From: a virus
Taxonomy: Duplodnaviria > Heunggongvirae > Uroviricota > Caudoviricetes
Strand: one strand, 5' to 3'
IMG/VR virus record: IMGVR_UViG_2541047938_000005
DNA length: 14,709 bases
Shown: piece by piece, positions 1 to 14,709 of the stretch
Layout: each line of letters begins with the position of its first letter
Position numbering within the stretch: position 1 is the first letter of the stretch
The notes under the pieces: generated by a model
Seen by the model: only the letters and a program-made list of their open reading frames with translations
Told to the model about the DNA's origin: nothing
The model's database searches: none
Position numbers and translations under genes: made by a program

Positions 1-600
1 ATGGCGCATATACAACTGGTCAAACAAACCTCTTCTGGTTTACTTCTCCCGGCGACGCCGGAGAGTTGCGATTTTCTGCATCAAATCAAAATAGGTGAGT
101 GGATACACGCAGACTTTAAGCGTGTGCGTAACTACGCATTCCACAAGCGTTTTTTCAAACTCCTGCAACTGGGATTCGATTACTGGACTCCGGTCGGTGG
201 GGCGATCACGCCTCGCGAACGAGAACTGCTGTCTGGTTTCGTTGATTACCTGTGCGAATCAGTTGGTCGGGAACACACGCCAGCCCTGAGTGATGCCGCA
301 GAGCAATACCTTAACACCGTTGCGACTCGTAGAACCCGGGATACGGCGTTGCTAAAGTCGTTTGAGGCTTTCCGCGAGTGGGTAACCATTCAGGCCGGAT
401 TTTACACCGAGCATATTTATCCGGACGGTAGCCGTGGGCGTCGGGCAAAATCCATCGCTTTTGCGAATATGGACGAAGTCGAGTTTCAGCAGGTTTATAA
501 ATCTGTACTGAATGTGCTGTGGAACTGGATTCTGTTCCGTAAATTCTCCTCTCAGGAGGAAGTTGAAAATGTGGCCGCACAACTACTGGAGTTTGCGTAA
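1..600 (+). CDS. nin-region protein, DUF1367-like (function unknown)
   Basis: 199-aa ORF starting at window position 1, so the true start may lie upstream. Stop TAA overlaps the next start (TAATG at 598-602), suggesting translational coupling. Family assignment is from memory of lambdoid genes upstream of Q. Confidence 0.65.
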   Translation: MAHIQLVKQTSSGLLLPATPESCDFLHQIKIGEWIHADFKRVRNYAFHKRFFKLLQLGFDYWTPVGGAITPRERELLSGFVDYLCESVGREHTPALSDAAEQYLNTVATRRTRDTALLKSFEAFREWVTIQAGFYTEHIYPDGSRGRRAKSIAFANMDEVEFQQVYKSVLNVLWNWILFRKFSSQEEVENVAAQLLEFA

Positions 601-890
601 TGGTGAATTTACGTAAAGCGGCTAAAGGCCAGATGTGCCAGATCAGAATCCCTGGCTACTGCAATCACAATCCCGAAACCTCTGTGCTGGCGCATTACAG
701 GCTGGCGGGGACGTGCGGAACAGCGACAAAACCACATGATATGCAGGCGGCGATAGCCTGTAGCTCATGCCACGATCTAATCGACGGGCGGGTAAAAACC
801 AGCGATTACACCAAAGAAGAATTGCGCCTGATGCATGCTGAAGGGGTTTTTCGCACACAAGAAATCTGGAGAAAGAAAGGTCATTTATGA
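600..890 (+). CDS. YbcO-like Cys-rich nin-region protein (DUF1364, putative nuclease)
   Basis: 96 aa; motif MxxLRKAAxGxxCQxRIPGxCNxNPETSVLAH and CxxC pairs match what I recall of DLP12 YbcO. Start overlaps the upstream stop, and its own stop overlaps the Q start (ATGA at 887-890). Confidence 0.75.
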   Translation: MVNLRKAAKGQMCQIRIPGYCNHNPETSVLAHYRLAGTCGTATKPHDMQAAIACSSCHDLIDGRVKTSDYTKEELRLMHAEGVFRTQEIWRKKGHL

Positions 891-1429
891 TTTACCCAAC
901 GAATACAGGAAAAAGCGGAGAACACCTTCGCCTCACCACGCTGGAAAGTGTCTGGATTCAGGGAAAACTACGTATGTGGGGGCGCTGGTCGTATATTGGC
1001 GGTGGCAGGTCAGGGAATATGTTCAATCAGTTGTTGGCATCCAAAAAACTGACGAAAACAGCCATTAATGAAGCCCTGCGCAGAATGAAAAAAGCGGGAA
1101 TAGAGAAAGCTGAGCTGGAAGCGTTTTTGCGAGAGATGATCAACGGCAAGCAAAAGAGCTGGCTGGCGCATTGTACTGATGCAGAGGCGTTATGTATTGA
1201 TCGAGTCATAAGTGAGGTGCTGGCAGAGCATCCAGGATTGATTTGCATTCTCCGGCAACGCTATGAAGGGCGGGGGATGACTAAGCGCAAAATGGCTGAA
1301 TTGCTAAATGATGCACACCCAGAGTGGTGTTTTAGCACATGCGAAAAACGGATTGCTAATTGGTTAGCTGTTGCTGAGTATGCCCTATATATTCCCATGC
1401 GTGAATCATTTGCTGAGAAAATGGCTTGA
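887..1429 (+). CDS. Late-gene antitermination protein Q-like
   Basis: 180 aa, positioned right after nin genes and upstream of terminators and the lysis cassette. C-terminal segment MTKRKMAELLNDAHPEWCFSTCEKRIANWLAVAEYALY looks like a DNA-binding helix region. Family call is positional plus remembered similarity, not a search. Confidence 0.6.
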   Translation: MIYPTNTGKSGEHLRLTTLESVWIQGKLRMWGRWSYIGGGRSGNMFNQLLASKKLTKTAINEALRRMKKAGIEKAELEAFLREMINGKQKSWLAHCTDAEALCIDRVISEVLAEHPGLICILRQRYEGRGMTKRKMAELLNDAHPEWCFSTCEKRIANWLAVAEYALYIPMRESFAEKMA

Positions 1430-1507
1430 TTTCTTACGTATAAACTGCTTCAATTTTGCTATGCTTCGCAAAGCTGTATCGCGAGGCGGATTGCAGACAT
1501 GGACATC

Positions 1508-1538
1508 GTAAAAAAACCGCTTAATGCGGTTTTTTTAC
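1508..1538. terminator. Intrinsic terminator, probably bidirectional
   Basis: A-run (1510-1516), stem AACCGC (1515-1520) / GCGGTT (1526-1531), loop TTAAT, then T-run (1530-1536). About 80 nt downstream of the Q stop. Confidence 0.55.
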
Positions 1539-1856
1539 GTCAGGAAAGCAGGGGAGAATGCTGCTAGTTGGGCAACTGGTCTTTCTGCTCCAAATTATAA
1601 CAGAGACCAGTTATAGTTTCGGTGCTGTGTTTTTTTTACAATATTGTGATAACACATTGCTGGCGGGAGTTTTGATATTTCTTGGCAGGGGCTGATGATG
1701 CGTTATCCTGATGTCGTCAACTCATATAAAATGAGATGAGAGATCATTGCAGGGTGGTTTGTAATTCGCTGTTTAGCGGGACAATATGTTGTCTGATACA
1801 AGACACCCGACGCCTCAGATTACTATAATAAAGACGAAGCATCCTTTGTATTGACC

Positions 1857-1882
1857 AACCGCCTGTTTAGGCGGTTCTTTTT
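1857..1882 (+). terminator. Intrinsic terminator (candidate tR'-like element)
   Basis: Stem AACCGCC (1857-1863) / GGCGGTT (1870-1876), loop TGTTTA, followed by CTTTTT. A TATAAT hexamer lies at 1824-1829 without a convincing -35. Confidence 0.5.
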
Positions 1883-2414
1883 GGGCTGGTTTATTGTATG
1901 CCAAATGATTATTAAAAAGGTTGTGTTAATAACAAAATCCGAAATAATATGCCTGCATATTTTTATCTTGCTTATATTCTGCATATTGTGCATAGCAGGC
2001 TCATCCCTGCAATCAAAACTGTATGATGAGTATTTTTTGTTTTCCTTTTTTCCAGTCATCTGATGATGACCTGCTTCTTTTTAATCCGGATCGACATCAG
2101 TTTTTTAAGATAATTCCTGCGAGTTATATGCATAAATGCCACAAACTCCGCATTTTATGTGGTTGGGAGTTGCCGGGCGCGCAGTGAGTTTGCTAAGAAA
2201 ACTCCTGCATGGTGAATCCCCCTGTGCGGTGGGGTGATACCATTAACCTTTTCTGTCGCCGACAGGTATCACGAACATTTTGTTCACCGGGAGGCACCCG
2301 GCACCATGCACTTCAATAGATTCTCTCCACATTATGGATATTCTTTCAGAATATCCCACGCAGACTTTGTGTAAATGTTAACAAATGTGCGTTTTATTTG
2401 ATCTGATTCGCTGT

Positions 2415-2444
2415 TTGAGCGTCCAAAACAACGGTATATATAAT
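2415..2444 (+). promoter_or_regulatory. Candidate sigma70 promoter for the lipoprotein moron
   Basis: TTGAGC (2415-2420), 18-bp spacer, TATAAT (2439-2444, within TATATAAT), about 30 nt upstream of the GAGGA RBS at 2466-2470. Hexamer reading only. Confidence 0.3.
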
Positions 2445-2473
2445 CCTTTACTATATGACATATGTGAGGAAAA

Positions 2474-2902
2474 ATGGGTTTTCGTAGCGCATCAATTCTT
2501 ACGTTGATTATTAGTGGGATTATTATCGGGTGCACTGATGCTGTATCGACAAATTATCATGACCGTACATCATATTACTCCGATAAAGCAATAGAGACAC
2601 AGTATGTGAGTTCATCTGAACGTACTTCTGATGTTAGTGAGGATATCCGTCTGTATGCCCATCAAATCAAGAGCGCCATCGAAAAACAGTTCGGGGATGC
2701 GAGTAAGTATTCAGGAAAAGAGTGTACACTGAGAATGCATATGGCCCCGAATGGCCTTCTACTGGAGGTTAAAAGAGAAAGTGGAGACCTCGATTTATGT
2801 CGTGAAGCGATGAATGCGATAAAGAATGCTGATATACCTGCCCCCCCTTCGCCGGAAGTATATAAAGTATTTCAAAATGGGGTGCTGGATTTTAAACCCT
2901 GA
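2474..2902 (+). CDS. Lipoprotein with TolA C-terminal (domain III)-like module
   Basis: 142 aa. RBS GAGGA 2466-2470. N-terminal signal peptide with lipobox IIGC (Cys then Thr at +2, so no Asp Lol-avoidance signal). C-terminal ~85 aa track the TolA C-terminus as I recall it: YAHQIKSAIEKQF / CTLRMHMAPNGLLLEV / DLCREA / IPAPPSPEVYKVF / LDFKP. Confidence 0.8.
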   Translation: MGFRSASILTLIISGIIIGCTDAVSTNYHDRTSYYSDKAIETQYVSSSERTSDVSEDIRLYAHQIKSAIEKQFGDASKYSGKECTLRMHMAPNGLLLEVKRESGDLDLCREAMNAIKNADIPAPPSPEVYKVFQNGVLDFKP

Positions 2903-3052
2903 TATTTATTGTTTTGTAATAAACGGTTTCGGCTTAGGTTTGTTCTGACACAGCTACGGCACTGAGCTAAATTTAGCGGATAGTCAGCTCTGAGCCAGTG
3001 GCGGACGTAACAACTACTATTGCTGAGATTTTAATGGATTGAGGAGCAAGAA

Positions 3053-3448
3053 GTGGGATTAAAGAAAATCGTTATGTTGACTTTTTGGGTCGGTTTTGTT
3101 GCGGGATGCACACCTTTACACCCTTCAGATTGCCACAAAACTACTGCTACAGGTAGTTGCAGTTCAGGACGCTGGGATGATCAGGATGAATGGGGGGCGC
3201 AAGCGCGGGGAATCAGAGCTGCAATTAATGCCAAACTTGATGAGCCGCATAACTGGAAAGGGAAAAAATGCAGGTTGCATATGGAATTCTCTCAGGATGG
3301 CACGGCGTTAAAAATATCTACCAGTAACGGTGATAAAGCCTATTGCGAAGCGATAAAGTCCGCAGCTCATAAAGCCAAATTTCCGGCCTTCAACAATCCG
3401 GAAGTCTACAGAGATTTTCAGAAATCTGGCTTTGACATGCGAGGTTAG
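3053..3448 (+). CDS. Second, divergent lipoprotein with TolA domain III-like C-terminus
   Basis: 131 aa, GTG start 3053 with GAGGAG RBS 3041-3046. Lipobox VAGC with Thr at +2. C-terminus keeps the same scaffold in divergent form (KKCRLHMEFSQDGTALKI ... GDKAYCEAIKSAAHKAKFPAFNNPEVYRDFQ). No obvious terminator between the two genes, so probably co-transcribed. Confidence 0.7.
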   Translation: MGLKKIVMLTFWVGFVAGCTPLHPSDCHKTTATGSCSSGRWDDQDEWGAQARGIRAAINAKLDEPHNWKGKKCRLHMEFSQDGTALKISTSNGDKAYCEAIKSAAHKAKFPAFNNPEVYRDFQKSGFDMRG

Positions 3449-3573
3449 CTCTTCAATTACTATATCTCATTCATAGCAAACTGACAGATTTGATGATGTT
3501 CTATATACGAAACCTGTGATGTCAAGTCTGAGCTAATACAAATAAACATAATATCAGAGAAATACATTTTATT

Positions 3574-3596
3574 AGCTCGCTACGGCGAGCTTTTTA
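3574..3596 (+). terminator. Intrinsic terminator closing the lipoprotein moron
   Basis: Stem AGCTCGC (3574-3580) / GCGAGCT (3585-3591), loop TACG, followed by TTTTT. Confidence 0.5.
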
Positions 3597-3699
3597 TATT
3601 GCATCGTCTCCAGCATATATATCAATTAAGGCTCTGATTGATGTGTCTGAAAGCCTACACATAATAACTATGCCATCCGTTCCGTGCGGAGGTGAGGCT

Positions 3700-3915
3700 A
3701 TGAAATCCATGGACAAAATTTCAACAGGCATTGCCTACGGCACCTCCGCAGGCAGTGCTGGCTACTGGTTTTTACAGTTGCTCGATAGAGTAACTCCGTC
3801 ACAGTGGGCTGCAATCGGTGTGCTGGGTAGTCTGGTATTTGGCCTGCTGACGTACCTGACAAACCTTTATTTCAAGATTAAAGAAGATAAGCGCAAGGCT
3901 GCGAGAGGTGAATAA
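3700..3915 (+). CDS. S: Class II holin (pinholin), phage 21 S-type, with dual-start motif
   Basis: 71 aa: [26 protein letters not shown] ... [20 protein letters not shown]. Two in-frame starts (Met1 at 3700, Met4 at 3709) fit the antiholin/holin pair known for S21. The ORF track's upstream GTG (3643) is probably not the start; GGAGGTGAGG RBS at 3689-3697. Confidence 0.9.
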
Positions 3916-4412
3916 TGCCTCCATCATTACGAAAAGTCGTTGCTGCTGCTATTGGTGGCGGAGCAATTGCTATAGCATCAGTGTTAATCACTGGCCCAAG
4001 TGGTAACGATGGTCTGGAAGGTGTCAGCTACATACCATACAAAGATATTGTTGGTGTATGGACTGTATGTCACGGGCATACAGGAAAAGACATCATGCTC
4101 GGTAAAACGTATACCAAAGCAGAATGCAAAACACTCTTGAATAAAGACCTTGCCACTGTCGCCAGACAAATTAACCCGTACATCAAAGTCGATATACCGG
4201 AAACAACGCGCGGCGCTCTTTACTCATTCGTTTACAACGTGGGTGCTGGCAATTTCAGAACATCGACGCTTCTTCGCAAAATAAACCAGGGCGATATCAA
4301 AGGCGCATGTGATCAGCTACGTCGCTGGACATATGCTGGCGGTAAGCAATGGAAAGGTCTCATGACTCGTCGTGAGATTGAGCGTGAAATCTGTTTGTGG
4401 GGTCAGCAATGA
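3915..4412 (+). CDS. R: SAR (signal-arrest-release) endolysin, phage 21 R-type lysozyme
   Basis: 165 aa. Gly/Ala-rich N-terminal SAR helix ([20 protein letters not shown]), then lysozyme core with the E..D..T catalytic spacing ([24 protein letters not shown]). Start overlaps the S stop (TAATG). Confidence 0.9.
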
Positions 4413-4873
4413 ACAGAGTAACCGCGATTATCTCCGCTCTGGTTATCTGCATCATCGTCTGCCTGTCATGGGCTGTTAATCATTACCGTGATAACGCCAT
4501 TACCTACAAAGCCCAGCGCGACAAAAATGCCAGAGAACTGAAGCTGGCGAACGCGGCAATTACTGACATGCAGATGCGTCAGCGTGATGTTGCTGCGCTC
4601 GATGCAAAATACACGAAGGAGTTAGCTGATGCGAAAGCTGAAAATGATGCTCTGCGTGATGATGTTGCCGCTGGTCGTCGTCGGTTGCACATCAAAGCAG
4701 TCTGTCAGTCAGTGCGTGAAGCCACCACCGCCTCCGGCGTGGATAATGCAGCCTCCCCCCGACTGGCAGACACCGCTGAACGGGATTATTTCACCCTCCG
4801 GGAACGACTGGTAATGATGCAGGCCCAACTTGAAGGTGCTCAGCAATACATAACCGAGCAGTGTTTAAAGTAA
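4409..4873 (+). CDS. Rz: Rz inner-membrane spanin (i-spanin), lambda-type
   Basis: 154 aa from ATG 4409, overlapping the R stop (ATGA). N-terminal TM segment then coiled-coil periplasmic domain; close to lambda Rz as I recall it. Confidence 0.9.
4629..4814 (+). CDS. Rz1: Rz1 outer-membrane lipoprotein spanin (o-spanin), embedded in Rz in the +1 frame
   Basis: 61 aa: [20 protein letters not shown] (lipobox) followed by a proline-rich segment [23 protein letters not shown] about 8 nt upstream. Fully nested in Rz as in lambda. Confidence 0.85.
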
Positions 4874-5010
4874 AATCTTAACTACAATATGATTCATTTT
4901 GATGATTGTTTCATAAGGAACAGTGAAGTAAGATCTAAGAGGAGTTAAATTTTATACAGTATAATCATAATATTGCAGCAAGGTGGTTATAATTGAAAGA
5001 ATATTTAGAT

Positions 5011-6468
5011 ATGAATACATCTCATGTAAGAGTTGTTACTCATATGTGTGGGTTCCTGGTTTGGCTCTATAGTCTTTCAATGTTGCCACCAATGGTTGTA
5101 GCATTGTTTTATAAAGAAAAAAGCCTGTTCGTTTTCTTTATAACTTTCGTTATATTTTTTTGCATTGGTGGCGGAGCGTGGTATACAACTAAGAAATCTG
5201 GCATTCAATTACGTACCCGTGATGGGTTTATTATAATTGTAATGTTTTGGATTTTGTTTTCTGTTATTAGTGCATTCCCTTTATGGATTGACTCAGAACT
5301 TAATTTAACGTTCATTGATGCTCTGTTTGAAGGGGTTTCTGGAATAACAACAACAGGAGCAACTGTAATTGATGATGTTAGTTCATTACCTCGGGCATAT
5401 TTGTACTATCGGTCACAGTTAAATTTTATAGGTGGTTTAGGAGTTATTGTTCTGGCGGTTGCAGTATTGCCATTATTGGGTATTGGTGGTGCAAAGCTTT
5501 ATCAGTCAGAAATGCCGGGGCCATTTAAGGATGACAAACTCACTCCCCGCCTGGCCGATACGTCACGGACACTGTGGATAACTTATTCTTTATTAGGTAT
5601 TGCTTGTATTGTCTGTTATAGACTTGCAGGAATGCCTTTGTTTGATGCTATTTGTCACGGGATTTCCACAGTTTCGCTTGGTGGTTTCTCAACTCATAGC
5701 GAGAGTATCGGATATTTTAATAACTATTTGGTTGAGCTGGTGGCTGGTTCTTTTTCCCTGCTATCGGCTTTCAACTTCACTCTTTGGTATATTGTTATTA
5801 GCAGAAAAACGATAAAACCTTTAATCAGAGATATTGAACTTCGTTTCTTTCTGTTAATAGCCTTAGGGGTGATCATTGTTACCTCTTTCCAGGTCTGGCA
5901 TATAGGTATGTATGACTTGCATGGAAGTTTTATTCATTCGTTTTTTCTTGCCAGCTCCATGCTCACTGATAATGGTTTAGCTACGCAGGATTATGCAAAC
6001 TGGCCCACGCACACGATAGTGTTTTTGCTGTTGTCAAGTTTCTTTGGGGGATGTATAGGTTCAACCTGTGGTGGAATTAAGTCACTTCGATTTCTTATAC
6101 TTTTCAAACAAAGCAAACACGAGATAAATCAGCTTTCTCATCCCAGAGCGTTGTTGAGTGTAAATGTAGGAGGGAAGATAGTTACAGATCGTGTAATGAG
6201 GTCTGTATGGAGTTTCTTTTTTCTTTATACTCTCTTCACGGTGTTTTTTATACTGGTGTTAAATGGTATGGGATATGATTTTCTTACATCATTTGCAACA
6301 GTGGCTGCATGTATTAATAATATGGGATTAGGTTTTGGGGCTACTGCATCGTCATTCGGAGTGCTTAATGACATTGCAAAATATTTAATGTGCATAGCTA
6401 TGATTCTTGGTCGCCTTGAAATTTATCCTGTTATTATATTGTTTTCAGGTTTTTTTTGGCGCTCCTAA
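5011..6468 (+). CDS. trkG: Trk-system K+ uptake protein TrkG (TrkH/KtrB family)
   Basis: 485 aa from ATG 5011 (MNTSHVRVV...). Multi-pass membrane protein with repeated pore-loop-like glycine motifs (GITTTG, IGGLG, VSLGGF, TCGGIKS). Visibly AT-rich compared with flanking phage genes. trkG is an established Rac cargo gene. Confidence 0.9.
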   Translation: MNTSHVRVVTHMCGFLVWLYSLSMLPPMVVALFYKEKSLFVFFITFVIFFCIGGGAWYTTKKSGIQLRTRDGFIIIVMFWILFSVISAFPLWIDSELNLTFIDALFEGVSGITTTGATVIDDVSSLPRAYLYYRSQLNFIGGLGVIVLAVAVLPLLGIGGAKLYQSEMPGPFKDDKLTPRLADTSRTLWITYSLLGIACIVCYRLAGMPLFDAICHGISTVSLGGFSTHSESIGYFNNYLVELVAGSFSLLSAFNFTLWYIVISRKTIKPLIRDIELRFFLLIALGVIIVTSFQVWHIGMYDLHGSFIHSFFLASSMLTDNGLATQDYANWPTHTIVFLLLSSFFGGCIGSTCGGIKSLRFLILFKQSKHEINQLSHPRALLSVNVGGKIVTDRVMRSVWSFFFLYTLFTVFFILVLNGMGYDFLTSFATVAACINNMGLGFGATASSFGVLNDIAKYLMCIAMILGRLEIYPVIILFSGFFWRS

Positions 6469-6605
6469 TATATGGCTGATTTATAATTGTGAGTTTAATA
6501 TTATGTTGACTCACTCATTGATCCAATACCTAACTTTACCAGCAACACCTCCGCCCCCAGTAGCACTGGCTGCTGGGGTGCGTTTTATTCATAAAGCAAG
6601 GCTGT

Positions 6606-7659
6606 ATGAGCGAGAAATTAAAGATAGTCTATCGCCCATTACAAGAATTGTCACCGTATGCGCACAACGCCAGGACGCACAGTACTGAGCAGGTGGCACA
6701 ACTGGTAGAAAGTATTAAGCAATTCGGCTGGACTAATCCGGTGCTGATTGACGAAAAGGGCGAAATTATTGCGGGTCACGGTCGTGTTATGGCGGCTGAA
6801 ATGCTCAAAATGGATTCTGTTCCGGTCATTGTTCTGTCTGGCCTGACGGATGAGCAGAAAAAGGCGTACCGCCTGGCAGATAATCGCCTGCCGATGAATG
6901 CTGGCTGGGATGAAGATCTGTTGCGGATGGAGCTGTCGGACCTAATCAATGCTGATTTTGATGTCTCCCTGACAGGCTTCATCCCGGCAGAAATTGATGA
7001 ACTGTTGACGGATGTTTTGCCCGGTACAGGAAATGAGGAGGAGCCGTATACGACGAAAATTGATACGCCTGTTTATGAGCCGTCAGGCGGTAAACCGGAT
7101 ATCAGTGAACTGTACGACGATACGAAAACTCAGGAGCTGATCAGCCGGATACGTTCGGCGTCCCTTGAATCATCTCTACCAGTGGCGCGATATAGCAGAA
7201 TTCGACAAGGCAGCGGCGCAGGCTTCCAGAGATGGCAAACCCGAACCGGAATATGGAGGCCTCGGCTTTGTTGATAACGCCATACCCAATCCGGACTGCC
7301 CGAAGTGCTGCGGTGAGGGAACGGGACAGCTTTATATGGCTGATACCACTCTGCTTGATGGGGATGCGCGGCAATTATATGCAGGGGCAAAATTCGGAAA
7401 ATTCGGCGTTGAGATCCTGCTGGAGGATAAGGCTGCCGCCCGGCGTGAATTGTTGCGTTTGTTTTCTGCTGGCGGGGCTTTATGTGCAGATAAGCGGCTA
7501 CGGGAACTGGAAATTGAACGGCGCAGAATGGAAAACCAGAAGCTGCGCAAAGAGATCGAAACGGTGGAAGATAATGAACATCCCCAGCCTGTGGCGATCA
7601 ATATTAATGTGGTTGATGCCAGAGTAAGGAGTGATGAAGATGATCTCTCCGACGCTTAA
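6606..7659 (+). pseudogene. ParB-like N-terminal domain protein (candidate small terminase subunit), reading frame disrupted near 7141-7170
   Basis: Frame 0 ORF 6606-7274 begins with a ParB N-terminal domain-like sequence (LKIVYRPLQELSPYAHNARTHS ... IIAGHGR). A +1 frame ORF is open from 7141 and runs to 7659, ending in a coiled-coil/acidic tail. A one-base shift near 7164-7168 would join them into ~350 aa. Could be a true frameshift, a sequencing error or programmed. Confidence 0.5.
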
Positions 7660-8941
7660 TGTGCCTCAGGCGCGATTTCTTTCAATGCCCCATAAATTTA
7701 AAGCCTATATTGCTGGTTTTGGCTCGGGCAAAACATGGGTTGGGTGTGGCGGCATATGCAAGGGGATTTGGGAGCATCCAGGTATAAATCAGGGATATTT
7801 TGCGCCAACGTATCCCCAAATTCGCGATATTTTTTACCCTACAGTGGAAGAAGTTGCTGCTGACTGGGGATTGAACGTAAAAATTAATGAGGGAAATAAA
7901 GAGGTTCACTTTTATTACGGACGCCAGTATCGGGGAACCACTATCTGCAGATCGATGGAGAAGCCACAAACGATCGTCGGTTTCAAAATTGGTAATGCGT
8001 TGGTGGATGAACTGGACATTTTGCCGAAGGAAAAAGCCAGAACGGCGTGGCGCAAGATAATTGCACGTATGCGTTATAAGATTGATGGACTTCGCAACGG
8101 TATTGACGTTACAACCACGCCGGAAGGATTCAAATTTGTCTACGAGCAGTTTGTTAAAGCCGTGCGTGAAAAAACAGAGCTGGCCTCACTGTATGGTCTG
8201 GTGCAGGCATCTACTTTCGATAATGAAAAGAACCTGCCAGCAGATTACATTCCTTCGCTTCTTGAATCATACCCTCCAGAGCTGATTAAAGCCTATCTTC
8301 GAGGACAGTTTACTAACCTGACAAGTGGTACTGTTTACCATCAGTTTGACCGGAAACTGAATAATTGCGAAGAAGTGGAGCAGCCAGGGGAGCCGATTTA
8401 TATTGGGATGGATTTTAACGTTGGAAAGATGGCGGGAATCGTCCATGTGCTGCGTTTGGGGCTTCCATGTGCGGTAACTGAAATCATCAATGCCTACGAT
8501 ACGCCGGATATGATCCGCATCATTAAAGAACGCTTCTGGCTGTATGATGGGAATGATTACCGGAAAGTGAGGGAAATTTATATTTATCCAGATGCTTCCG
8601 GGGATTCCAGAAAATCAAGTAACGCAAGTACGACGGATATAGCCCAGCTTAAGCAGGCTGGTTTTAACGTTGTGGTGAACAGCTCGAACCCGCCAGTAAA
8701 AGATCGCGTTAACTCAATGAATGCAATGTTCTGCAATGCCAATGGTGAGCGTCGCTATAAAGTTAATGTGAAGCGTTGCCCGTTATATGCCGAATCTCTG
8801 GAGCAACAGGTCTGGGATGAGAAGGGGGAGCCTGATAAAAAATCTGGCAATGATCACCCGAATGATGCCGGAGGTTATTTCATCGTTAAGCAATTCCCTA
8901 TTGTCAAACCGACCGGAAGAGTCACATCACTTCGGATTTAA
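7640..8941 (+). CDS. Terminase large subunit (TerL)
   Basis: Walker A (GFGSGKT), Walker B-like (ALVDELD) and nuclease-domain acidic motifs (IGMDFNV, YPDASGD, NDHPNDAGG). AAGGAG RBS 7626-7631 favours ATG 7640 over the GTG at 7631. About 434 aa, apparently full length. Confidence 0.85.
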   Translation: MISPTLNVPQARFLSMPHKFKAYIAGFGSGKTWVGCGGICKGIWEHPGINQGYFAPTYPQIRDIFYPTVEEVAADWGLNVKINEGNKEVHFYYGRQYRGTTICRSMEKPQTIVGFKIGNALVDELDILPKEKARTAWRKIIARMRYKIDGLRNGIDVTTTPEGFKFVYEQFVKAVREKTELASLYGLVQASTFDNEKNLPADYIPSLLESYPPELIKAYLRGQFTNLTSGTVYHQFDRKLNNCEEVEQPGEPIYIGMDFNVGKMAGIVHVLRLGLPCAVTEIINAYDTPDMIRIIKERFWLYDGNDYRKVREIYIYPDASGDSRKSSNASTTDIAQLKQAGFNVVVNSSNPPVKDRVNSMNAMFCNANGERRYKVNVKRCPLYAESLEQQVWDEKGEPDKKSGNDHPNDAGGYFIVKQFPIVKPTGRVTSLRI

Positions 8942-8943
8942 TT

Positions 8944-9883
8944 ATGGCTGATATATCAACACCCAACCTCGACTATAACGATATGCTGGAGGCGTGGGAT
9001 ATTAACGACGCACTGATGGGCGGTACGCTTGAAATGCGCAGGCAGGGGGAAAATTATCTCCCAAAATGGCCTAACGAAGATGAAGACGCTTATAAAAAAC
9101 GCCTGTCTGTGGCTACGCTACTTCCTGTGTATGAAGAAAGCATCAAGCAAAATATTGGGCGCATATTTGCAGAGCCGACAGTATTGAGTGAGGAAACGCC
9201 GGCAAAAATCAGGGAATATGCAGAAAATATCGACATGGAGGGGAGCCGACTGGATGTGTGGGCGCAGCAATTTTTCAGCCTCGCATTTCAGTATGGTGTG
9301 GCACATGCGCTGGTGGACTATCCACGAACGGATATGAAAGAGATTCGGACAAAAGCCGATGAAAACGCGACCGGTGGAGGGATTCAATATTCACAGTTCG
9401 GCAGGTGTGAAACGAGCGCCAAAGGTTGCTGCAACTGGTTATCTCGTGAATGGAGAGAAAAAAGAAGGCGATGTTCTTATTTCCATTGATACTGGTTCGG
9501 GGAGTATTTCTGCAGGTCAGATTGTTACGTTCGCTGGTGATCCGAATCAGTATGTTGTGGCAGCAGCGACCAGCAATCTGATTACTCTTGCAGCGCCCGG
9601 ACTGCGTCAGGATCTGGCCGATGATACTGCCATCACAGTTGTTGGGGCCTTTACTGCAAATATGGCGTTTGATCGCAACGCGTTTCTGCTGGCATCCCGT
9701 ACTCCGGCAATGCCGGAAGGTGGCGATAATGCTGATGATGTAATGAATGTTACGGACCCGATTTCAGGGATTACGTTCCAGATTGCACTGTATCGTCAGT
9801 ATCGCCAGGTGCGCTATGAAGTTGGACTGGCATGGGGTGTTTCATCAGTGAAGCCGGCACATGGTTGTCTGATTCTTGGTTAA
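8944..9883 (+). pseudogene. Head-module remnant: 5' part of a head gene (tentatively portal-like) joined out of frame to the 3' part of a capsid-like gene
   Basis: ORF 8944-9489 ends in junk-like residues; the next frame (open through 9883) carries a C-terminus with an HK97-fold-capsid-like motif (RTPAMPEGG) and is followed by a strong terminator. No full-length portal, protease or capsid gene sits between TerL and the head-tail genes. Domain identities are tentative. Confidence 0.4.
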
Positions 9884-9891
9884 ACATTCAA

Positions 9892-9913
9892 ACGGGGCTT
9901 CGGCCCCATTTTT
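9892..9913 (+). terminator. Intrinsic terminator after the capsid-like gene end
   Basis: GGGGC (9894-9898), UUCG tetraloop, GCCCC (9903-9907), then ATTTTT. Confidence 0.6.
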
Positions 9914-9925
9914 AATGGGGGGCAT

Positions 9926-10102
9926 ATGGCCGGATTAACTAAAGAGCAAAGAGCACAGCGTGAAGCCGCACAAAAAACGCAAATTGAGTTAGTGGTTATG
10001 GTGACCGATTATCAGATGTTTCCCGGCGCACCAACTATCGCTAATGTTCATCCTGATGAAGTTGACAACTGGAAGGCTATGGGCTGGAAAACTCAGGAGT
10101 AA
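9926..10102 (+). CDS. Small hypothetical protein (58 aa)
   Basis: ATG 9926 to TAA 10100-10102, below the ORF-track threshold. Fills the gap between the terminator and the next gene; translation MAGLTKEQRAQREAAQKTQIELVV... is not low-complexity. Weak RBS. Confidence 0.25.
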   Translation: MAGLTKEQRAQREAAQKTQIELVVMVTDYQMFPGAPTIANVHPDEVDNWKAMGWKTQE

Positions 10103-10105
10103 CAC

Positions 10106-10501
10106 ATGATCACTTACGTGACCTGTGATGACGTTGATAATGCGTTTGGGAACGCCTGGACGAGTGAGAACGCTAAAAATAAAGCTGTTTTAATGGCTAA
10201 TGCCTGGCTTAATGGCTTCAACCTGAAAATTAACCCATCCCGTATTCCGGAAGAGGTAAAACTTGCGGGAGCATATGCAGCCAGAATTGCCTCATTCGGT
10301 AAGTTGTTTCAGCAGAAAAATGATTCTGGCGTTGTTATCAGTAAAGCCGTGTCGGCTGACGGGGTCAGTGTATCGAAATCATTTTCTGAGTTGCCAGCAA
10401 ACAGCACTGCATTGCTTGAACCCGATTTACAGCTTGCGATAGCACTGCTGAAACCGTACGGACTTAGTCGCTCACAAGTCAGGGTTGTGAGGGGGGGATA
10501 A
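10106..10501 (+). CDS. Head-tail connector protein (gp6-like), putative
   Basis: 131 aa, CAGGAG RBS 10094-10099, first of four tightly coupled small genes between the capsid remnant and the major tail gene. Assigned by position and size. Confidence 0.45.
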   Translation: MITYVTCDDVDNAFGNAWTSENAKNKAVLMANAWLNGFNLKINPSRIPEEVKLAGAYAARIASFGKLFQQKNDSGVVISKAVSADGVSVSKSFSELPANSTALLEPDLQLAIALLKPYGLSRSQVRVVRGG

Positions 10502-10884
10502 TGGGGCTTCGTGAAGAGATTCAGTCAGAGGTTGCCGCTGCTTTTGATGAGGATTTAGCGGACGCCGTGAGTGATTTTTCTGGTTCTTACGTTACGCACC
10601 GGCACTGGGATCCTGTGACGGAAACTGGCGGCGAATCCACCGCAATCTATACCGGGCGAGGCGTGTTGACACGTTATAAGCTGGGCAGAATTGATGGGAT
10701 TAATATTTTGCATGGTGACCTTAAATTAACCGCTCTGGTATGCGAGGTTACGGATAAACCAGCTGTCGACCATATTATTGAGATTTATGATCCTGTATCA
10801 AGGCAGTTACAACGATACGAGGTAATTACAGCAAGTGTAGATCCTTCCGCATCAGTTTACTCTATCCAGTTAAGGAGAGCGTAA
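10501..10884 (+). CDS. Head-tail adaptor / head closure protein, putative
   Basis: 127 aa; start overlaps the upstream stop (TAATG). Positional assignment. Confidence 0.4.
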   Translation: MGLREEIQSEVAAAFDEDLADAVSDFSGSYVTHRHWDPVTETGGESTAIYTGRGVLTRYKLGRIDGINILHGDLKLTALVCEVTDKPAVDHIIEIYDPVSRQLQRYEVITASVDPSASVYSIQLRRA

Positions 10885-11265
10885 ATGGCAAAGGCATGGG
10901 ATATAGAACCGTCAATATTTGCCGGGATGATTGAGGAAGATGTAGGGCTGAAGATTCGCTACATCGCTATGCAGATTCTTACTGCTATTGATATTGCTGC
11001 TCCGGTTGATACCGGACGTTTCAGAAATAACAACCTGGTGTCGTTACAGCATCCCGATTTTGGTATATCTGATAACGTGGATCCGAACGGTACGATTGCT
11101 GTTCAGCGTGGGATCGGGGTTATTTCGAAAGCTGCAAATTACGGGGTTATTTATATCCAGAATAACCTTCCTTATGCAGAGGCTCTTGAAAACGGTCATT
11201 CACAACAAGCGCCAACTGGCGTGTATGCCAACGCTTTTCATGGTGTTTTACAGGCTTACAAATGA
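10885..11265 (+). CDS. HK97 gp10-family neck/tail completion protein
   Basis: 126 aa; contains the PVDTGRFR motif I associate with the HK97 gp10 family; AGGAG RBS upstream. Confidence 0.55.
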   Translation: MAKAWDIEPSIFAGMIEEDVGLKIRYIAMQILTAIDIAAPVDTGRFRNNNLVSLQHPDFGISDNVDPNGTIAVQRGIGVISKAANYGVIYIQNNLPYAEALENGHSQQAPTGVYANAFHGVLQAYK

Positions 11266-11654
11266 AGTTTACTGAAATCAGAAATACGGTTATTTCCAGA
11301 ATGACGGCACAGACGATTATTGATGGAAAAGACGTATTGTATCCGAACGGGCCAACGTTCGATCCTTCCGGTAAGTTAATCTGGGCGCGGTTAAGTAATA
11401 TTCCCGGGCAGGCTGGAGTTAATGAAATTGGCGCGGGGCCGGTTGTTTATCGCACGGGGATAATCATTATTCAGTTATTTGTCCCCGCAGGTTCTGGTTC
11501 AAAACTCATTACTGAGACAGCCGATAAATTGCGGGAACTGTTTGAGTTTCAGGATGACGATCGTCTCAGTTACCAGGCTGTTTCCTCAATAGCCGTTGGC
11601 GAAAAGAATGGCTGGTTCCAGCTTAATCTTCAAATTCCATATCGCGCGCTCTAG
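11262..11654 (+). CDS. Tail terminator / tail completion protein (gpU-like), putative
   Basis: 130 aa; ATGA overlap with the upstream gene; sits immediately before the major tail gene. Confidence 0.4.
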   Translation: MKFTEIRNTVISRMTAQTIIDGKDVLYPNGPTFDPSGKLIWARLSNIPGQAGVNEIGAGPVVYRTGIIIIQLFVPAGSGSKLITETADKLRELFEFQDDDRLSYQAVSSIAVGEKNGWFQLNLQIPYRAL

Positions 11655-11680
11655 CGCAATTAATGACATAGGAGGCTCCT

Positions 11681-12643
11681 GTGAGTTCAGGTGCAAAGGT
11701 TATCTCGGCATTTATCCGGGAGACGGTTGCAGGCACTACGCCAGCAAGTGGTGACTGGAGTTTATTAAAACGCACAAGCTGGGGAGTAAAACCCACCCAG
11801 AATAAAGGCGAAAATAATGAGATTGGTGGCTCCCGGATGGCTCAGGGGGCGACGCCTGGCACTGTGGATGTCGGCGGTGATGTTGGTACCAAATTTCGCT
11901 GGGGTCAACATGATGATTTTCTTGCATCCTGTTTCGGCGCGGAATGGTCAGGCGATTCTCTGACAATGGGGAATGAGCGAATAACATTTTCTCTGGCGAC
12001 CTATGCGTCCGATGTCGGAATTGCCTCTGTCGTCAGAGGAGCGCAGGTTGGCTCATGGAAAATGCAGATCCCTAACGACGGCGATATTACAGCGACCGTA
12101 ACCTTTGCCGGACTGGACTGGGAATCAAAGGCCGATGATACGAATTTTATCAAAGGCGAACCTGTGGATAGTGCAGGAAAGCTACGTTATTCGTTTAAGG
12201 AGGTTTCAGCAGTAAGCCTGAATGGTGTTGCCGGAGGTAACGGTTTTTGTATCGACAGTTTTGATATTCAGTTCGATAACAAACTCCAGACACAGCGTTG
12301 TATCGGGACTGGCTCGCCTTATGCAGGAGCAAATATTCCGACTACTTTTACACCGTCCGGTACGGTGACGCTTTCATGGTCTAAAGCCGCGTGGGAAATC
12401 TGGAGTAAAACACTGACTGGAGAAACAGTTCCGTTCAGCTTCACGCTTTCGAATGGAGAGGGGGCATACACTTTCAGTTTCCCGAAGGTTCAGGTGTCAG
12501 GTGAATGGCCTGATGGGGGTAATAGCGACATTATCCAGGTTCAATTGAGCATTACCGCAGCAGATGAAGCACCTACGATAACCAGAAAAAAAAATTCCCC
12601 GGCTGCCGTGATCGCAAAAGCCAGTGCTGAGGCGATTAGTTGA
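11681..12643 (+). CDS. Major tail (tube) protein, putative
   Basis: 320 aa, GTG start with GGAGG RBS. Gly/Ser/Thr-rich, beta-type composition, positioned between neck genes and the chaperone-like gene. Confidence 0.5.
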   Translation: MSSGAKVISAFIRETVAGTTPASGDWSLLKRTSWGVKPTQNKGENNEIGGSRMAQGATPGTVDVGGDVGTKFRWGQHDDFLASCFGAEWSGDSLTMGNERITFSLATYASDVGIASVVRGAQVGSWKMQIPNDGDITATVTFAGLDWESKADDTNFIKGEPVDSAGKLRYSFKEVSAVSLNGVAGGNGFCIDSFDIQFDNKLQTQRCIGTGSPYAGANIPTTFTPSGTVTLSWSKAAWEIWSKTLTGETVPFSFTLSNGEGAYTFSFPKVQVSGEWPDGGNSDIIQVQLSITAADEAPTITRKKNSPAAVIAKASAEAIS

Positions 12644-12691
12644 TTTTCCGTTATTCCTCCTGTGGTACTGCCCTACAGGGGGACGCATTGA

Positions 12692-13153
12692 ATGAGGTTA
12701 TGGATGTTTATTCTTAATCAGAAAATTATCATTGGTGGAGAACGCTGGTTTACGCCAATGAAGGACTTAAAACCTGTAGACGGGTTAAAACTGTTGGTGG
12801 CAAGCAGCGATAACGATCAGTATCGCTCCCGTAATGCATTAATCCGTCGCCACATTGAGAAAATGGATGCCAGTTTGCACGTCGGAACGAAGGAGTTTGA
12901 TATTTCAAAGGTTTCCGAGGTGGATTCTGTTGATGATTTACTCATTGATAATGCCGCTCGTTATCTGCTGAAAGACTGGAAAGGGGTTGGTGAACTGGTT
13001 AATGGTGTTGAGGTTGCACTGGAATATACGGCAGAACGAGGGATCGCGCTGCTTAAGCAGAATCCAGAGTTGTACTGGCAGATCCTTGCAGAAGCAGCCA
13101 GCATCGCCCAGGGTAAAGAGCAGCAGAAGCAGGATACGATAAAAAAGCCATAG
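12692..13153 (+). CDS. Tail assembly chaperone-like protein (gpG-like), putative
   Basis: 153 aa, acidic, immediately after the major tail gene. No in-frame or -1 continuation into a T/tape-measure ORF; ends at TAG 13151-13153. Confidence 0.4.
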   Translation: MRLWMFILNQKIIIGGERWFTPMKDLKPVDGLKLLVASSDNDQYRSRNALIRRHIEKMDASLHVGTKEFDISKVSEVDSVDDLLIDNAARYLLKDWKGVGELVNGVEVALEYTAERGIALLKQNPELYWQILAEAASIAQGKEQQKQDTIKKP

Positions 13154-13276
13154 CTGCCCAGCGGTGGTTATCGGAGTTCGGGGGAGAAAGGGGGGAAAAG
13201 GCAAGATGGAAGCGAGAAAAACTCAGGTTGCCACCGATATCCAACAGCGTATGGAAATATCATTCACCTGAAAGGG

Positions 13277-14125
13277 ATGACAGCCGTTGGCGAAGGTGAG
13301 TTACTCATCGGCTGGAGTGGTACAAGCGGTGCTCATGCTCCGGCATTTATTCGTTCACGACGGGATACGACCGACGCAAACTGGTCGCCGTGGGCGCAGC
13401 TTTACACCTCGGCTCATCCTCCTGCAGAGTTTTATCCAGTCGGTGCACCAATCCCGTGGCCATCAGATACCGTTCCGTCTGGTTATGCCCTGATGCAGGG
13501 GCAGACTTTTGACAAATCTGCATACCCGAAACTTGCAGTTGCTTATCCGTCAGGCGTGATCCCTGATATGCGTGGCTGGACGATTAAGGGCAAGCCCGCC
13601 AGTGGTCGGGCCGTATTATCTCAGGAACAGGACGGCATTAAATCGCACACCCACAGCGCCAGCGCATCCAGTACGGATTTGGGGACGAAAACCACATCGT
13701 CGTTTGATTACGGAACCAAATCCACGAATAACACCGGGGTGCATACCCATAGTATTAGCGGGACCGCAAATAGTGCTGGTGCGCACCAACACAAGAGTTC
13801 CGGTGCATTTGGTGGCACGAACACGAGCATTTTCCCTAATGGTTATACCGCGATTTCAAATCTAAGCGCGGGGATTATGAGCACAACAAGCGGTAGTGGC
13901 CAGACTCGTAATGCAGGGAAGACATCATCAGATGGTGCTCATACCCACTCGCTGTCCGGCACTGCTGCAAGCGCAGGCGCACATGCACATACTGTCGGTA
14001 TTGGTGCTCATACGCACTCCGTTGCGATTGGTTCACATGGACACACCATCACCGTTAACGCTGCTGGTAACGCGGAAAACACCGTCAAAAACATCGCATT
14101 TAACTATATTGTGAGGCTTGCATAA
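13277..14125 (+). CDS. stf: Side tail fiber protein, C-terminal receptor-binding portion only (collar-like domain plus His-x-His repeats)
   Basis: 282 aa. [50 protein letters not shown] followed by repeated HTHS/HAHT/HGHT motifs and the lambda Stf-like ending [14 protein letters not shown]. The long N-terminal shaft of full-length Stf (about 700-1100 aa) is missing. Confidence 0.8.
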
Positions 14126-14709
14126 TGGCATTCAGAATGAGTGAACAACCACGGACCATAAAAATTTATAATCTGCTGGCCGGAACTAATGAATTTATTG
14201 GTGAAGGTGATGCATATATTCCGCCTCATACAGGTCTGCCAGCAAACAGTACCGATATTGCACCGCCAGATATTCCGGCTGGCTTCGTGGCTGTTTTCAA
14301 CAGTGATGAGTCATCGTGGCATCTCGTTGAAGATCATCGGGGTAAAACGGTTTATGACGTGGCTTCCGGCGACGCGTTATTTATTTCTGAACTCGGTCCG
14401 TTACCGGAAAATGTTACCTGGTTATCGCCGGAAGGGGAGTTTCAGAAGTGGAACGGCACAGCCTGGGTGAAGGATACGGAAGCAGAAAAACTGTTCCGGA
14501 TCCGGGAGGCGGAAGAAACAAAAAACAACCTGATGCAGGTAGCCAGTGAGCATATTGCGCCGCTTCAGGATGCTGCAGATCTGGAAATTGCAACGGAGGA
14601 AGAAATCTCGTTGCTGGAAGCATGGAAAAAGTATCGGGTATTGCTGAACCGTGTTGATACGTCAACTGCACCTGATATTGAGTGGCCTACGAACCCTGTC
14701 AGGGAGTAA
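14125..14709 (+). CDS. tfa: Tail fiber assembly protein (Tfa)
   Basis: 194 aa beginning [34 protein letters not shown], characteristic of lambdoid Tfa/TfaR-type chaperones. Start overlaps the stf stop (TAATG). Stop codon is at the window end. Confidence 0.9.

Follow-up and report, generated by a model that had tools for sequence, protein, structure and literature searches.

Two overlapping open reading frames (ORFs) lie directly upstream of the large terminase gene (terL) in a 14,709-nt stretch of prophage DNA, hereafter called the window. These ORFs are almost certainly the remains of two different genes. The cause is a genuine, strain-private and inactivating deletion of about 1.9 kb, through which the front of a ParB-like gene came to adjoin the tail of a small terminase gene (terS) in a decaying Rac-type prophage. 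An exact-protein look-up found the chimeric ORF in E. coli UMEA 3329-1 (GCA_000461255.1, scaffold KE702357.1), and the window was 100% identical to this assembly over all 14,709 nt. The proteins at the junction are EQZ01482.1 and EQZ01483.1.

Structure of the junction upstream of terL

The features around the junction are as follows.
6606-7274, plus strand: ParB-like ORF of 222 aa, chimeric, with the frame change inside it (ORF listing)
6606-7168, plus strand: 5' part of a ynaK-type ParB/Srx gene, nt 1-563, aa 1-187 plus 2 nt (DNA and protein identity)
7167-7168, no strand: deletion junction 1, the dinucleotide GA, a 2-bp microhomology (three-row junction alignments)
7169-7274, plus strand: read-through tail of the truncated ParB ORF, terS DNA in the wrong frame (codon view)
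7165-7659, plus strand: +1-frame ORF of 164 aa that runs into the TerL start (ORF listing)
7167-7659, plus strand: 3' remnant of terS, last 493 nt, aa 202-364 of 364 plus the stop codon (DNA and protein identity)
7631/7640-8941, plus strand: TerL, intact, 433 aa, ATG at 7640 (PF03237 and PF17289; Terminase_6N and Terminase_6C)

The window was compared with two intact relatives, the phage vB_EcoS-666R9 (ON470614, locus L002) and the prophage of NCTC10444 (locus L004). Both have the same gene order as the window and are 99.4-100% identical to it in nucleotides on both sides of the junction. Unlike the window, they carry a full ParB gene, a glycosyltransferase gene, a 69-aa gene and a 364-aa TerS. 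By blastn against vB_EcoS-666R9, window 4409-7168 corresponded to L002 1804-4563 (99.4%) and window 7167-9220 to L002 6510-8563 (99.9%). Against the NCTC10444 prophage, window 1-7168 corresponded to L004 3001-10168 (3 mismatches, 99.96%) and window 7167-9377 to L004 12112-14322 (no mismatch, 100%). The homology to the ParB gene stops at 7168, and the homology to another gene, terS, starts at 7167. At junction 1, the ynaK-type ParB/Srx gene breaks off at nt 563 and terS takes over at nt 603. The DNA missing at this point amounts to 1,945 bp relative to NCTC10444, where it occupies L004 10169-12113, and 1,948 bp relative to vB_EcoS-666R9. Both lengths are 1 mod 3, and the frame changes at the junction because of this. 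In the alignments with both relatives, the parental flanks have nothing but GA in common. No copy of the deleted DNA or of its four protein segments was found anywhere else in the window.

The original prediction had placed the joint in the SASL/NHLYQW region and attributed it to a single-base shift. The position was right: the frame switch lies exactly between SASL(E) and NHLYQW, at nucleotides 7167/7168. The single-base shift did not survive the alignment to intact homologues, which had been suggested as a check. This alignment located a deletion junction and no one-base indel, and the two homology blocks are 1,945-1,948 bp apart in the intact relatives.

The ParB-like ORF

ORF 6606-7274 was expected to carry a ParB N-terminal domain ahead of TerL, and it does. 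It matched PF02195 (ParB_N, Pfam) over aa 23-90 with 30.3 bits against a gathering cutoff of 26.3, which places it in the ParB family. A PDB sequence search with the intact ParB homologue returned Spo0J/ParB N-domains (E = 1.8e-5). The ParB part of the window is identical at 187/188 positions to aa 1-188 of an intact 263-aa ParB and then diverges. The expected run of the ParB frame into junk was also seen, with ParB similarity stopping at residue 188, followed by about 34 unrelated residues and a stop codon at 7272-7274. The full-length architecture of the phage family, an N-domain plus a C-terminal part, is lacking in this ORF, which covers positions 3-149/217 of phrog_620 compared with 3-217/217 for the intact homologue. 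The true ParB C-terminus (PDIEKFLLCAAERHT...EEEEYA, 76 aa) is missing from the window. Still present in the truncated ORF are the start codon, an AAGG that resembles a Shine-Dalgarno sequence and the complete ParB_N domain including the GHGRVMA motif, and some residual expression or activity may persist. The 222-aa chimeric ORF is annotated as 'ParB/Srx family protein' (WP_021571218.1).

The terS remnant and TerL

The +1-frame ORF 7165-7659 was predicted to reach the TerL overlap, and this was borne out by the TerL start at ATG 7640. Its sequence is identical at 161/163 positions to TerS aa 202-364. The coiled-coil and acidic tail of this frame had been read as the C-terminus of a ParB-like small terminase; they do belong to a small terminase, but they are not a ParB C-terminus. 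Missing from the remnant are a native start, the N-terminal region and the first half of the Terminase_2 core. Its only in-frame 5' start is a TTG at 7165, which was made by the junction and has no Shine-Dalgarno sequence. The N-terminal region of small terminases serves DNA recognition. Here TerS aa 1-201, and with them this region and the native start, are deleted. ORF 7165-7659 gave no Pfam match and a single weak match to phrog_51 (E = 1.4e-4, positions 160-261/261), and the ORF adjoining terL falls short of the small-terminase family as defined by PF03592 and phrog_51. Judged by sequence, the window carries a fragment of a small-terminase family member, not a member.

Gene callers report just a 107-aa piece of the remnant (7336-7659). 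Over its entire length, this piece matches all 107 positions of phrog_29114 ('unknown function'; 1.5e-69), and the identical 107-aa sequence has been deposited from Shigella sonnei too. From these matches, phrog_29114 looks like a collection of terS C-terminal remnants of eroded prophages.

TerL overlaps the terS stop codon by 20 nt, the same as in the intact relatives. Its DNA is 100% identical to that of NCTC10444, and the gene is annotated as terminase in both intact relatives.

The gene block in intact relatives

Between trkG and terL, the intact relatives carry four genes, which encode ParB, a 310-aa protein, a 69-aa protein and the 364-aa TerS. The intact ParB/Srx protein is 262/263 aa long, and the 310-aa gene overlaps the ParB gene by 8 nt. 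By PF20691 (1.1e-34) and phrog_842, the 310-aa protein belongs to the TAGT family of glycosyltransferases. The 69-aa protein is similar to an inner segment of the small-terminase family phrog_309 (1e-17). The intact TerS matched PF03592 (Terminase_2) over aa 122-321 with 35.1 bits against a cutoff of 26.1, and it matched phrog_51 over the full length (1-261/261, 2.4e-76). The only match of the intact TerS in a PDB sequence search, to the small terminase Pam5, was non-significant (E = 0.23), so that Pfam and PHROGs are the basis for assigning it as TerS. No name at family level came from NCBIfam for TerS, the glycosyltransferase or the 69-aa protein. The DNA lost at junction 1 comprised the last 76 ParB codons, the glycosyltransferase gene, the 69-codon gene and the first 201 terS codons.

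The proposal that the ParB-like gene is itself the small terminase has to be given up. In the intact relatives, three genes lie between ParB and TerL, one of them a genuine TerS; it is this separate Terminase_2/phrog_51 protein that abuts TerL. A ParB-like gene directly upstream of terL with no other TerS was not found in these relatives.

Some further observations concern this block. In vB_EcoS-666R9, outside the window, the ParB gene and the TAGT/GREB1-related glycosyltransferase gene adjoin at L002 4001-5717. The label of phrog_842 is 'beta-glucosyl-HMC-alpha-glucosyltransferase', and no hydroxymethylase or TET gene was found near the pair within the L002 stretch examined. The pair, just upstream of terS, may form a module in intact Rac-like phages. 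The 69-aa ORF (L002 5695-5904, upstream of terS) matches the middle of phrog_309 (positions 157-218/319); it may represent a relic, or else an accessory part of the packaging module that binds DNA. In RefSeq/PGAP, the intact 262-aa ParB ORF of NCTC10444 (L004 9606-10394) is tagged as a partial 'ynaK' pseudogene at 9606-9863. The truncated K-12 YnaK appears to be the naming reference, and intact copies appear to be mis-flagged in RefSeq/PGAP.

Distribution and polarity of the junction

A megablast search of 6606-7659 against 5,426 complete E. coli genomes gave 1,595 matching records, none of which covered at least 80% of the query in one place. The matches covered either query nt 1-563 (ynaK or 'ParB/Srx family') or nt 562 onward ('terminase small subunit'), and phage records showed the same two-part split. 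Junction 1 was present in 0 of the 5,426 complete genomes. Exact-match scans with the 43-nt junction gave no match in the GTDB species representatives, IMG/VR or the JGI metagenomes; the exact-protein look-up alone located it. Of the 1,592 complete E. coli genomes that matched at all, 839 contain the intact 3-kb four-gene block at a coverage of at least 80%. ParB and TerS in their intact forms each occur on about 1,000 or more contigs, compared with one NCBI contig for the chimeric 222-aa ORF.

The long form consists of four intact ORFs that fill their family profiles, and the short form of a junk tail and a start-less remnant. The long form is taken as ancestral because the profiles are filled end to end, the intact block is widespread and the chimera is on one contig. 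On these sequence comparisons, a deletion in the lineage of the window is the only reasonable polarity.

The chimeric ORF was also found in a Logan assembly contig of SRR958752, which is reported for 4 samples. This 8,502-nt contig equals window 4764-13265 at 100% across junctions 1 and 2; the Logan run is possibly the same read set as that of the NCBI assembly, so that the assembler is independent and the data not necessarily. The literature searched on Rac prophages, Rac-SA53, ynaK and the glycosyltransferase-ParB pair yielded nothing on this locus.

Alternative explanations

A true frameshift pseudogene, that is, one ParB-like small-terminase gene broken by a single-base indel, would explain why two ORFs overlap in adjacent frames with a break exactly at SASL/NHLYQW. 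We regard it as extremely unlikely, because the 76-aa C-terminus of the intact ParB is unrelated to the +1-frame sequence, because the +1 frame is aa 202-364 of another gene that lies 1.9 kb off in the intact relatives, and because no complete E. coli genome has both parts contiguous. Of the inactivating frameshift in the original prediction, the genuine inactivating discontinuity stands; its cause is the deletion of about 1.9 kb, and the two frames stem from different genes. A programmed ribosomal frameshift yielding a ParB-TerS fusion protein had also been offered, and the open-frame overlap 7165-7274 would in principle allow a +1 shift. The probability of such a shift is practically nil. 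Within the overlap, no X XXY YYZ heptamer lies in the ParB frame, and no known +1 motif or homopolymer was found; the sole heptamer there, AAACCCG at 7237, does not fit the register. No homologue shares the two-frame layout. The layout is strain-private, with no occurrence in the complete genomes, GTDB representatives, IMG/VR and JGI metagenomes searched, and the junction alignments demonstrate a deletion scar. Equally negligible is the reverse polarity, in which the window would show the ancestral short form and other strains would have gained the 1.9 kb as a cargo cassette. The mosaicism of phage genomes and a possibly accessory glycosyltransferase speak for it, but the cassette would have had to bring exactly the C-terminal part that ParB lacks here and the N-terminal part that TerS lacks. 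Moreover, the long form completes phrog_620 (3-217/217) and phrog_51 (1-261/261), which the window matches only in part, and its ORFs are intact, against a junk tail and a start-less remnant in the short form.

A false join by sequencing or assembly, with the 1.9 kb intact in the real genome, has somewhat more in its favour, since the source is a 2013 draft scaffold and was judged from assemblies, not raw reads. It is nevertheless very unlikely. The Logan contig comes from another assembler and shows junctions 1 and 2 with identical sequence, and the sequencing error considered in the original prediction is improbable for this reason. A 2-bp overlap cannot bring about repeat collapse, the missing segment is unique sequence that should have assembled somewhere, and analogous true deletions are common among complete genomes. 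About as small is the chance that the host expresses the truncated protein, ParB_N followed by 34 new residues, and has co-opted it. The start codon, the AAGG and the whole ParB_N domain with GHGRVMA are retained, and K-12 likewise retains a ynaK stub. Against this, the allele occurs in one strain only, the endpoints of the stubs in other strains are scattered from ynaK nt 496 down to nt 27 and reach as far as the trkG stop codon, and 3 substitutions in 13.2 kb relative to the intact prophage leave no time for selection. It is likewise very doubtful that the stub downstream of the retained trkG is expressed with a host-beneficial or anti-phage role.

Decay of the prophage

The window fits a defective Rac-type lambdoid prophage: it carries a lysis cassette, trkG, ynaK, ydaY and tfaR, and its morphogenesis genes are disrupted. 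Further features are as follows.
5011-6468, plus strand: trkG, Trk potassium transporter, an intact cargo gene (PF02386 TrkH; annotated in NCTC10444)
8944-9377, plus strand: 5' fragment of the portal gene (DUF4055), about 144 aa, first ~434 nt (NCTC10444 block boundaries and annotation)
9375-9883, plus strand: junction 2, with a 3-bp microhomology at 9375-9377, then the 3' fragment of a P22-type coat gene (alignments, Pfam)
13236-13239, no strand: junction 3, 4-bp overlap, about 12.3 kb missing (blastn of 13000-14709 against NCTC10444)

At junction 2, 3,670 bp are missing relative to NCTC10444. This length is also 1 mod 3 and gives an out-of-frame portal-coat fusion; the minor head protein and a DUF6651 protein were removed as well. 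The coat fragment (last ~509 nt) matches the C-terminal part of P22_CoatProtein (profile positions 331-423/423). The loss at junction 3 begins a short way past ydaY, takes in the tape-measure, tail-tip J and lom genes, and ends inside the tail-fibre gene. What is left of the fibre, its C-terminus, shares just 97-99% identity with NCTC10444, as does tfaR. Together, the three deletions remove parts of the terS, portal, scaffold, coat, tape-measure, tail-tip and fibre genes. Apart from the scars, there are 3 substitutions in 13.2 kb between the window and NCTC10444. The decay is recent for this reason, and little weight attaches to the intact appearance of terL and the tail genes.

Two ORFs with a TolA C-terminal domain (PF06519) lie at 2474-2902 and 3053-3448, in the region from the antiterminator-like genes to the lysis cassette. 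They may be cargo that interferes with Tol-dependent phage or colicin uptake.

Comparable lesions in other strains and phages

The Rac prophage of K-12 is an element of the same type, with lysis genes, trkG, a ynaK-type ParB gene, ydaY and tfaR as in the window. Its ynaK is also a 5' stub created by an internal deletion, with nt 1-254 being 100% identical. The endpoints differ: ynaK nt 254 is joined directly to ydaY in K-12, whereas ynaK nt 563 is joined to terS nt 603 in the window. The window has suffered three smaller deletions (1.9, 3.7 and ~12.3 kb) in place of the direct ynaK-ydaY join, and unlike K-12 Rac it retains the TerL, head-tail connector, tail terminator and tail tube genes.

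An independent deletion in the EcPF15 prophage (NZ_CP054227) likewise joined the 5' part of ynaK to a 3' remnant of terS, directly upstream of terL. There, the ParB-side homology stops at window 6882 (gene nt 277), the PGAP ParB ORF is 309 nt long, and the last 378 nt of terS remain, compared with the last 493 nt in the window. PGAP describes this remnant as 'terminase small subunit, incomplete, missing N-terminus'. For 'gpOterS' of Rac-SA53 (KU052037), the depositors annotated a 'fusion of two genes by deletion'. Its terS region is 93.6% identical to window 7167-7449, but the N-terminal partner is not ParB, and an in-frame 342-aa product is retained. The onset of the Rac-SA53 homology at 7167 was considered as a sign of a shared recombination hotspot. 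This was rejected, since the query is without terS upstream of 7167.

The ynaK stub of B strains stops at nt 231. In other E. coli, endpoints were found at ynaK nt 496, 438, 429, 421, 349, 110 and 27, and one lesion lies at the trkG stop codon. IS5 is annotated under the match with the nt 429 endpoint. At least 231 nt were kept in the first two samples of ynaK stubs, which suggested selection for a ParB stub; this idea was dropped after a trkG-anchored search gave the stubs of 110 nt and 27 nt and the lesion at the trkG stop. The deletion endpoints found in other strains extend as far as trkG without entering it. The retention of trkG, not of any part of ynaK, is the common denominator of these lesions.

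Proposed course of events and implications

We believe that junction 1 arose by a microhomology-mediated illegitimate deletion in the Rac-type prophage of E. coli UMEA 3329-1, between ends that shared GA. Replication slippage or illegitimate recombination would be the probable route. The ParB frame now enters the terS DNA out of frame and acquires about 34 junk residues before a stop, and the tail of terS stays open in the +1 frame up to the normal terL overlap. With no N-terminal region, only half of the Terminase_2 core and no proper start, TerS has presumably become non-functional. From the gene content, with losses in the TerS, portal, scaffold, coat and tail genes, the prophage would be unable to package DNA or form particles. 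The decay is probably neutral, and the remnants presumably persist only because the events are recent, while the neighbouring trkG is maintained.

The finding corrects the annotation of this locus. In UMEA 3329-1, WP_021571218.1 is a chimeric read-through product, and the adjacent 107-aa 'hypothetical protein' is a terS remnant. The ORF pair is not a split small terminase and not a recoding site. More generally, pairs of ORFs in adjacent frames in prophages may be deletion scars instead of indels. The junction itself is strain-private, and it is a case of ordinary cryptic-prophage erosion with mechanistically nothing new. Rac-type prophages erode by many independent small deletions, the left ends of which halt at the retained trkG.
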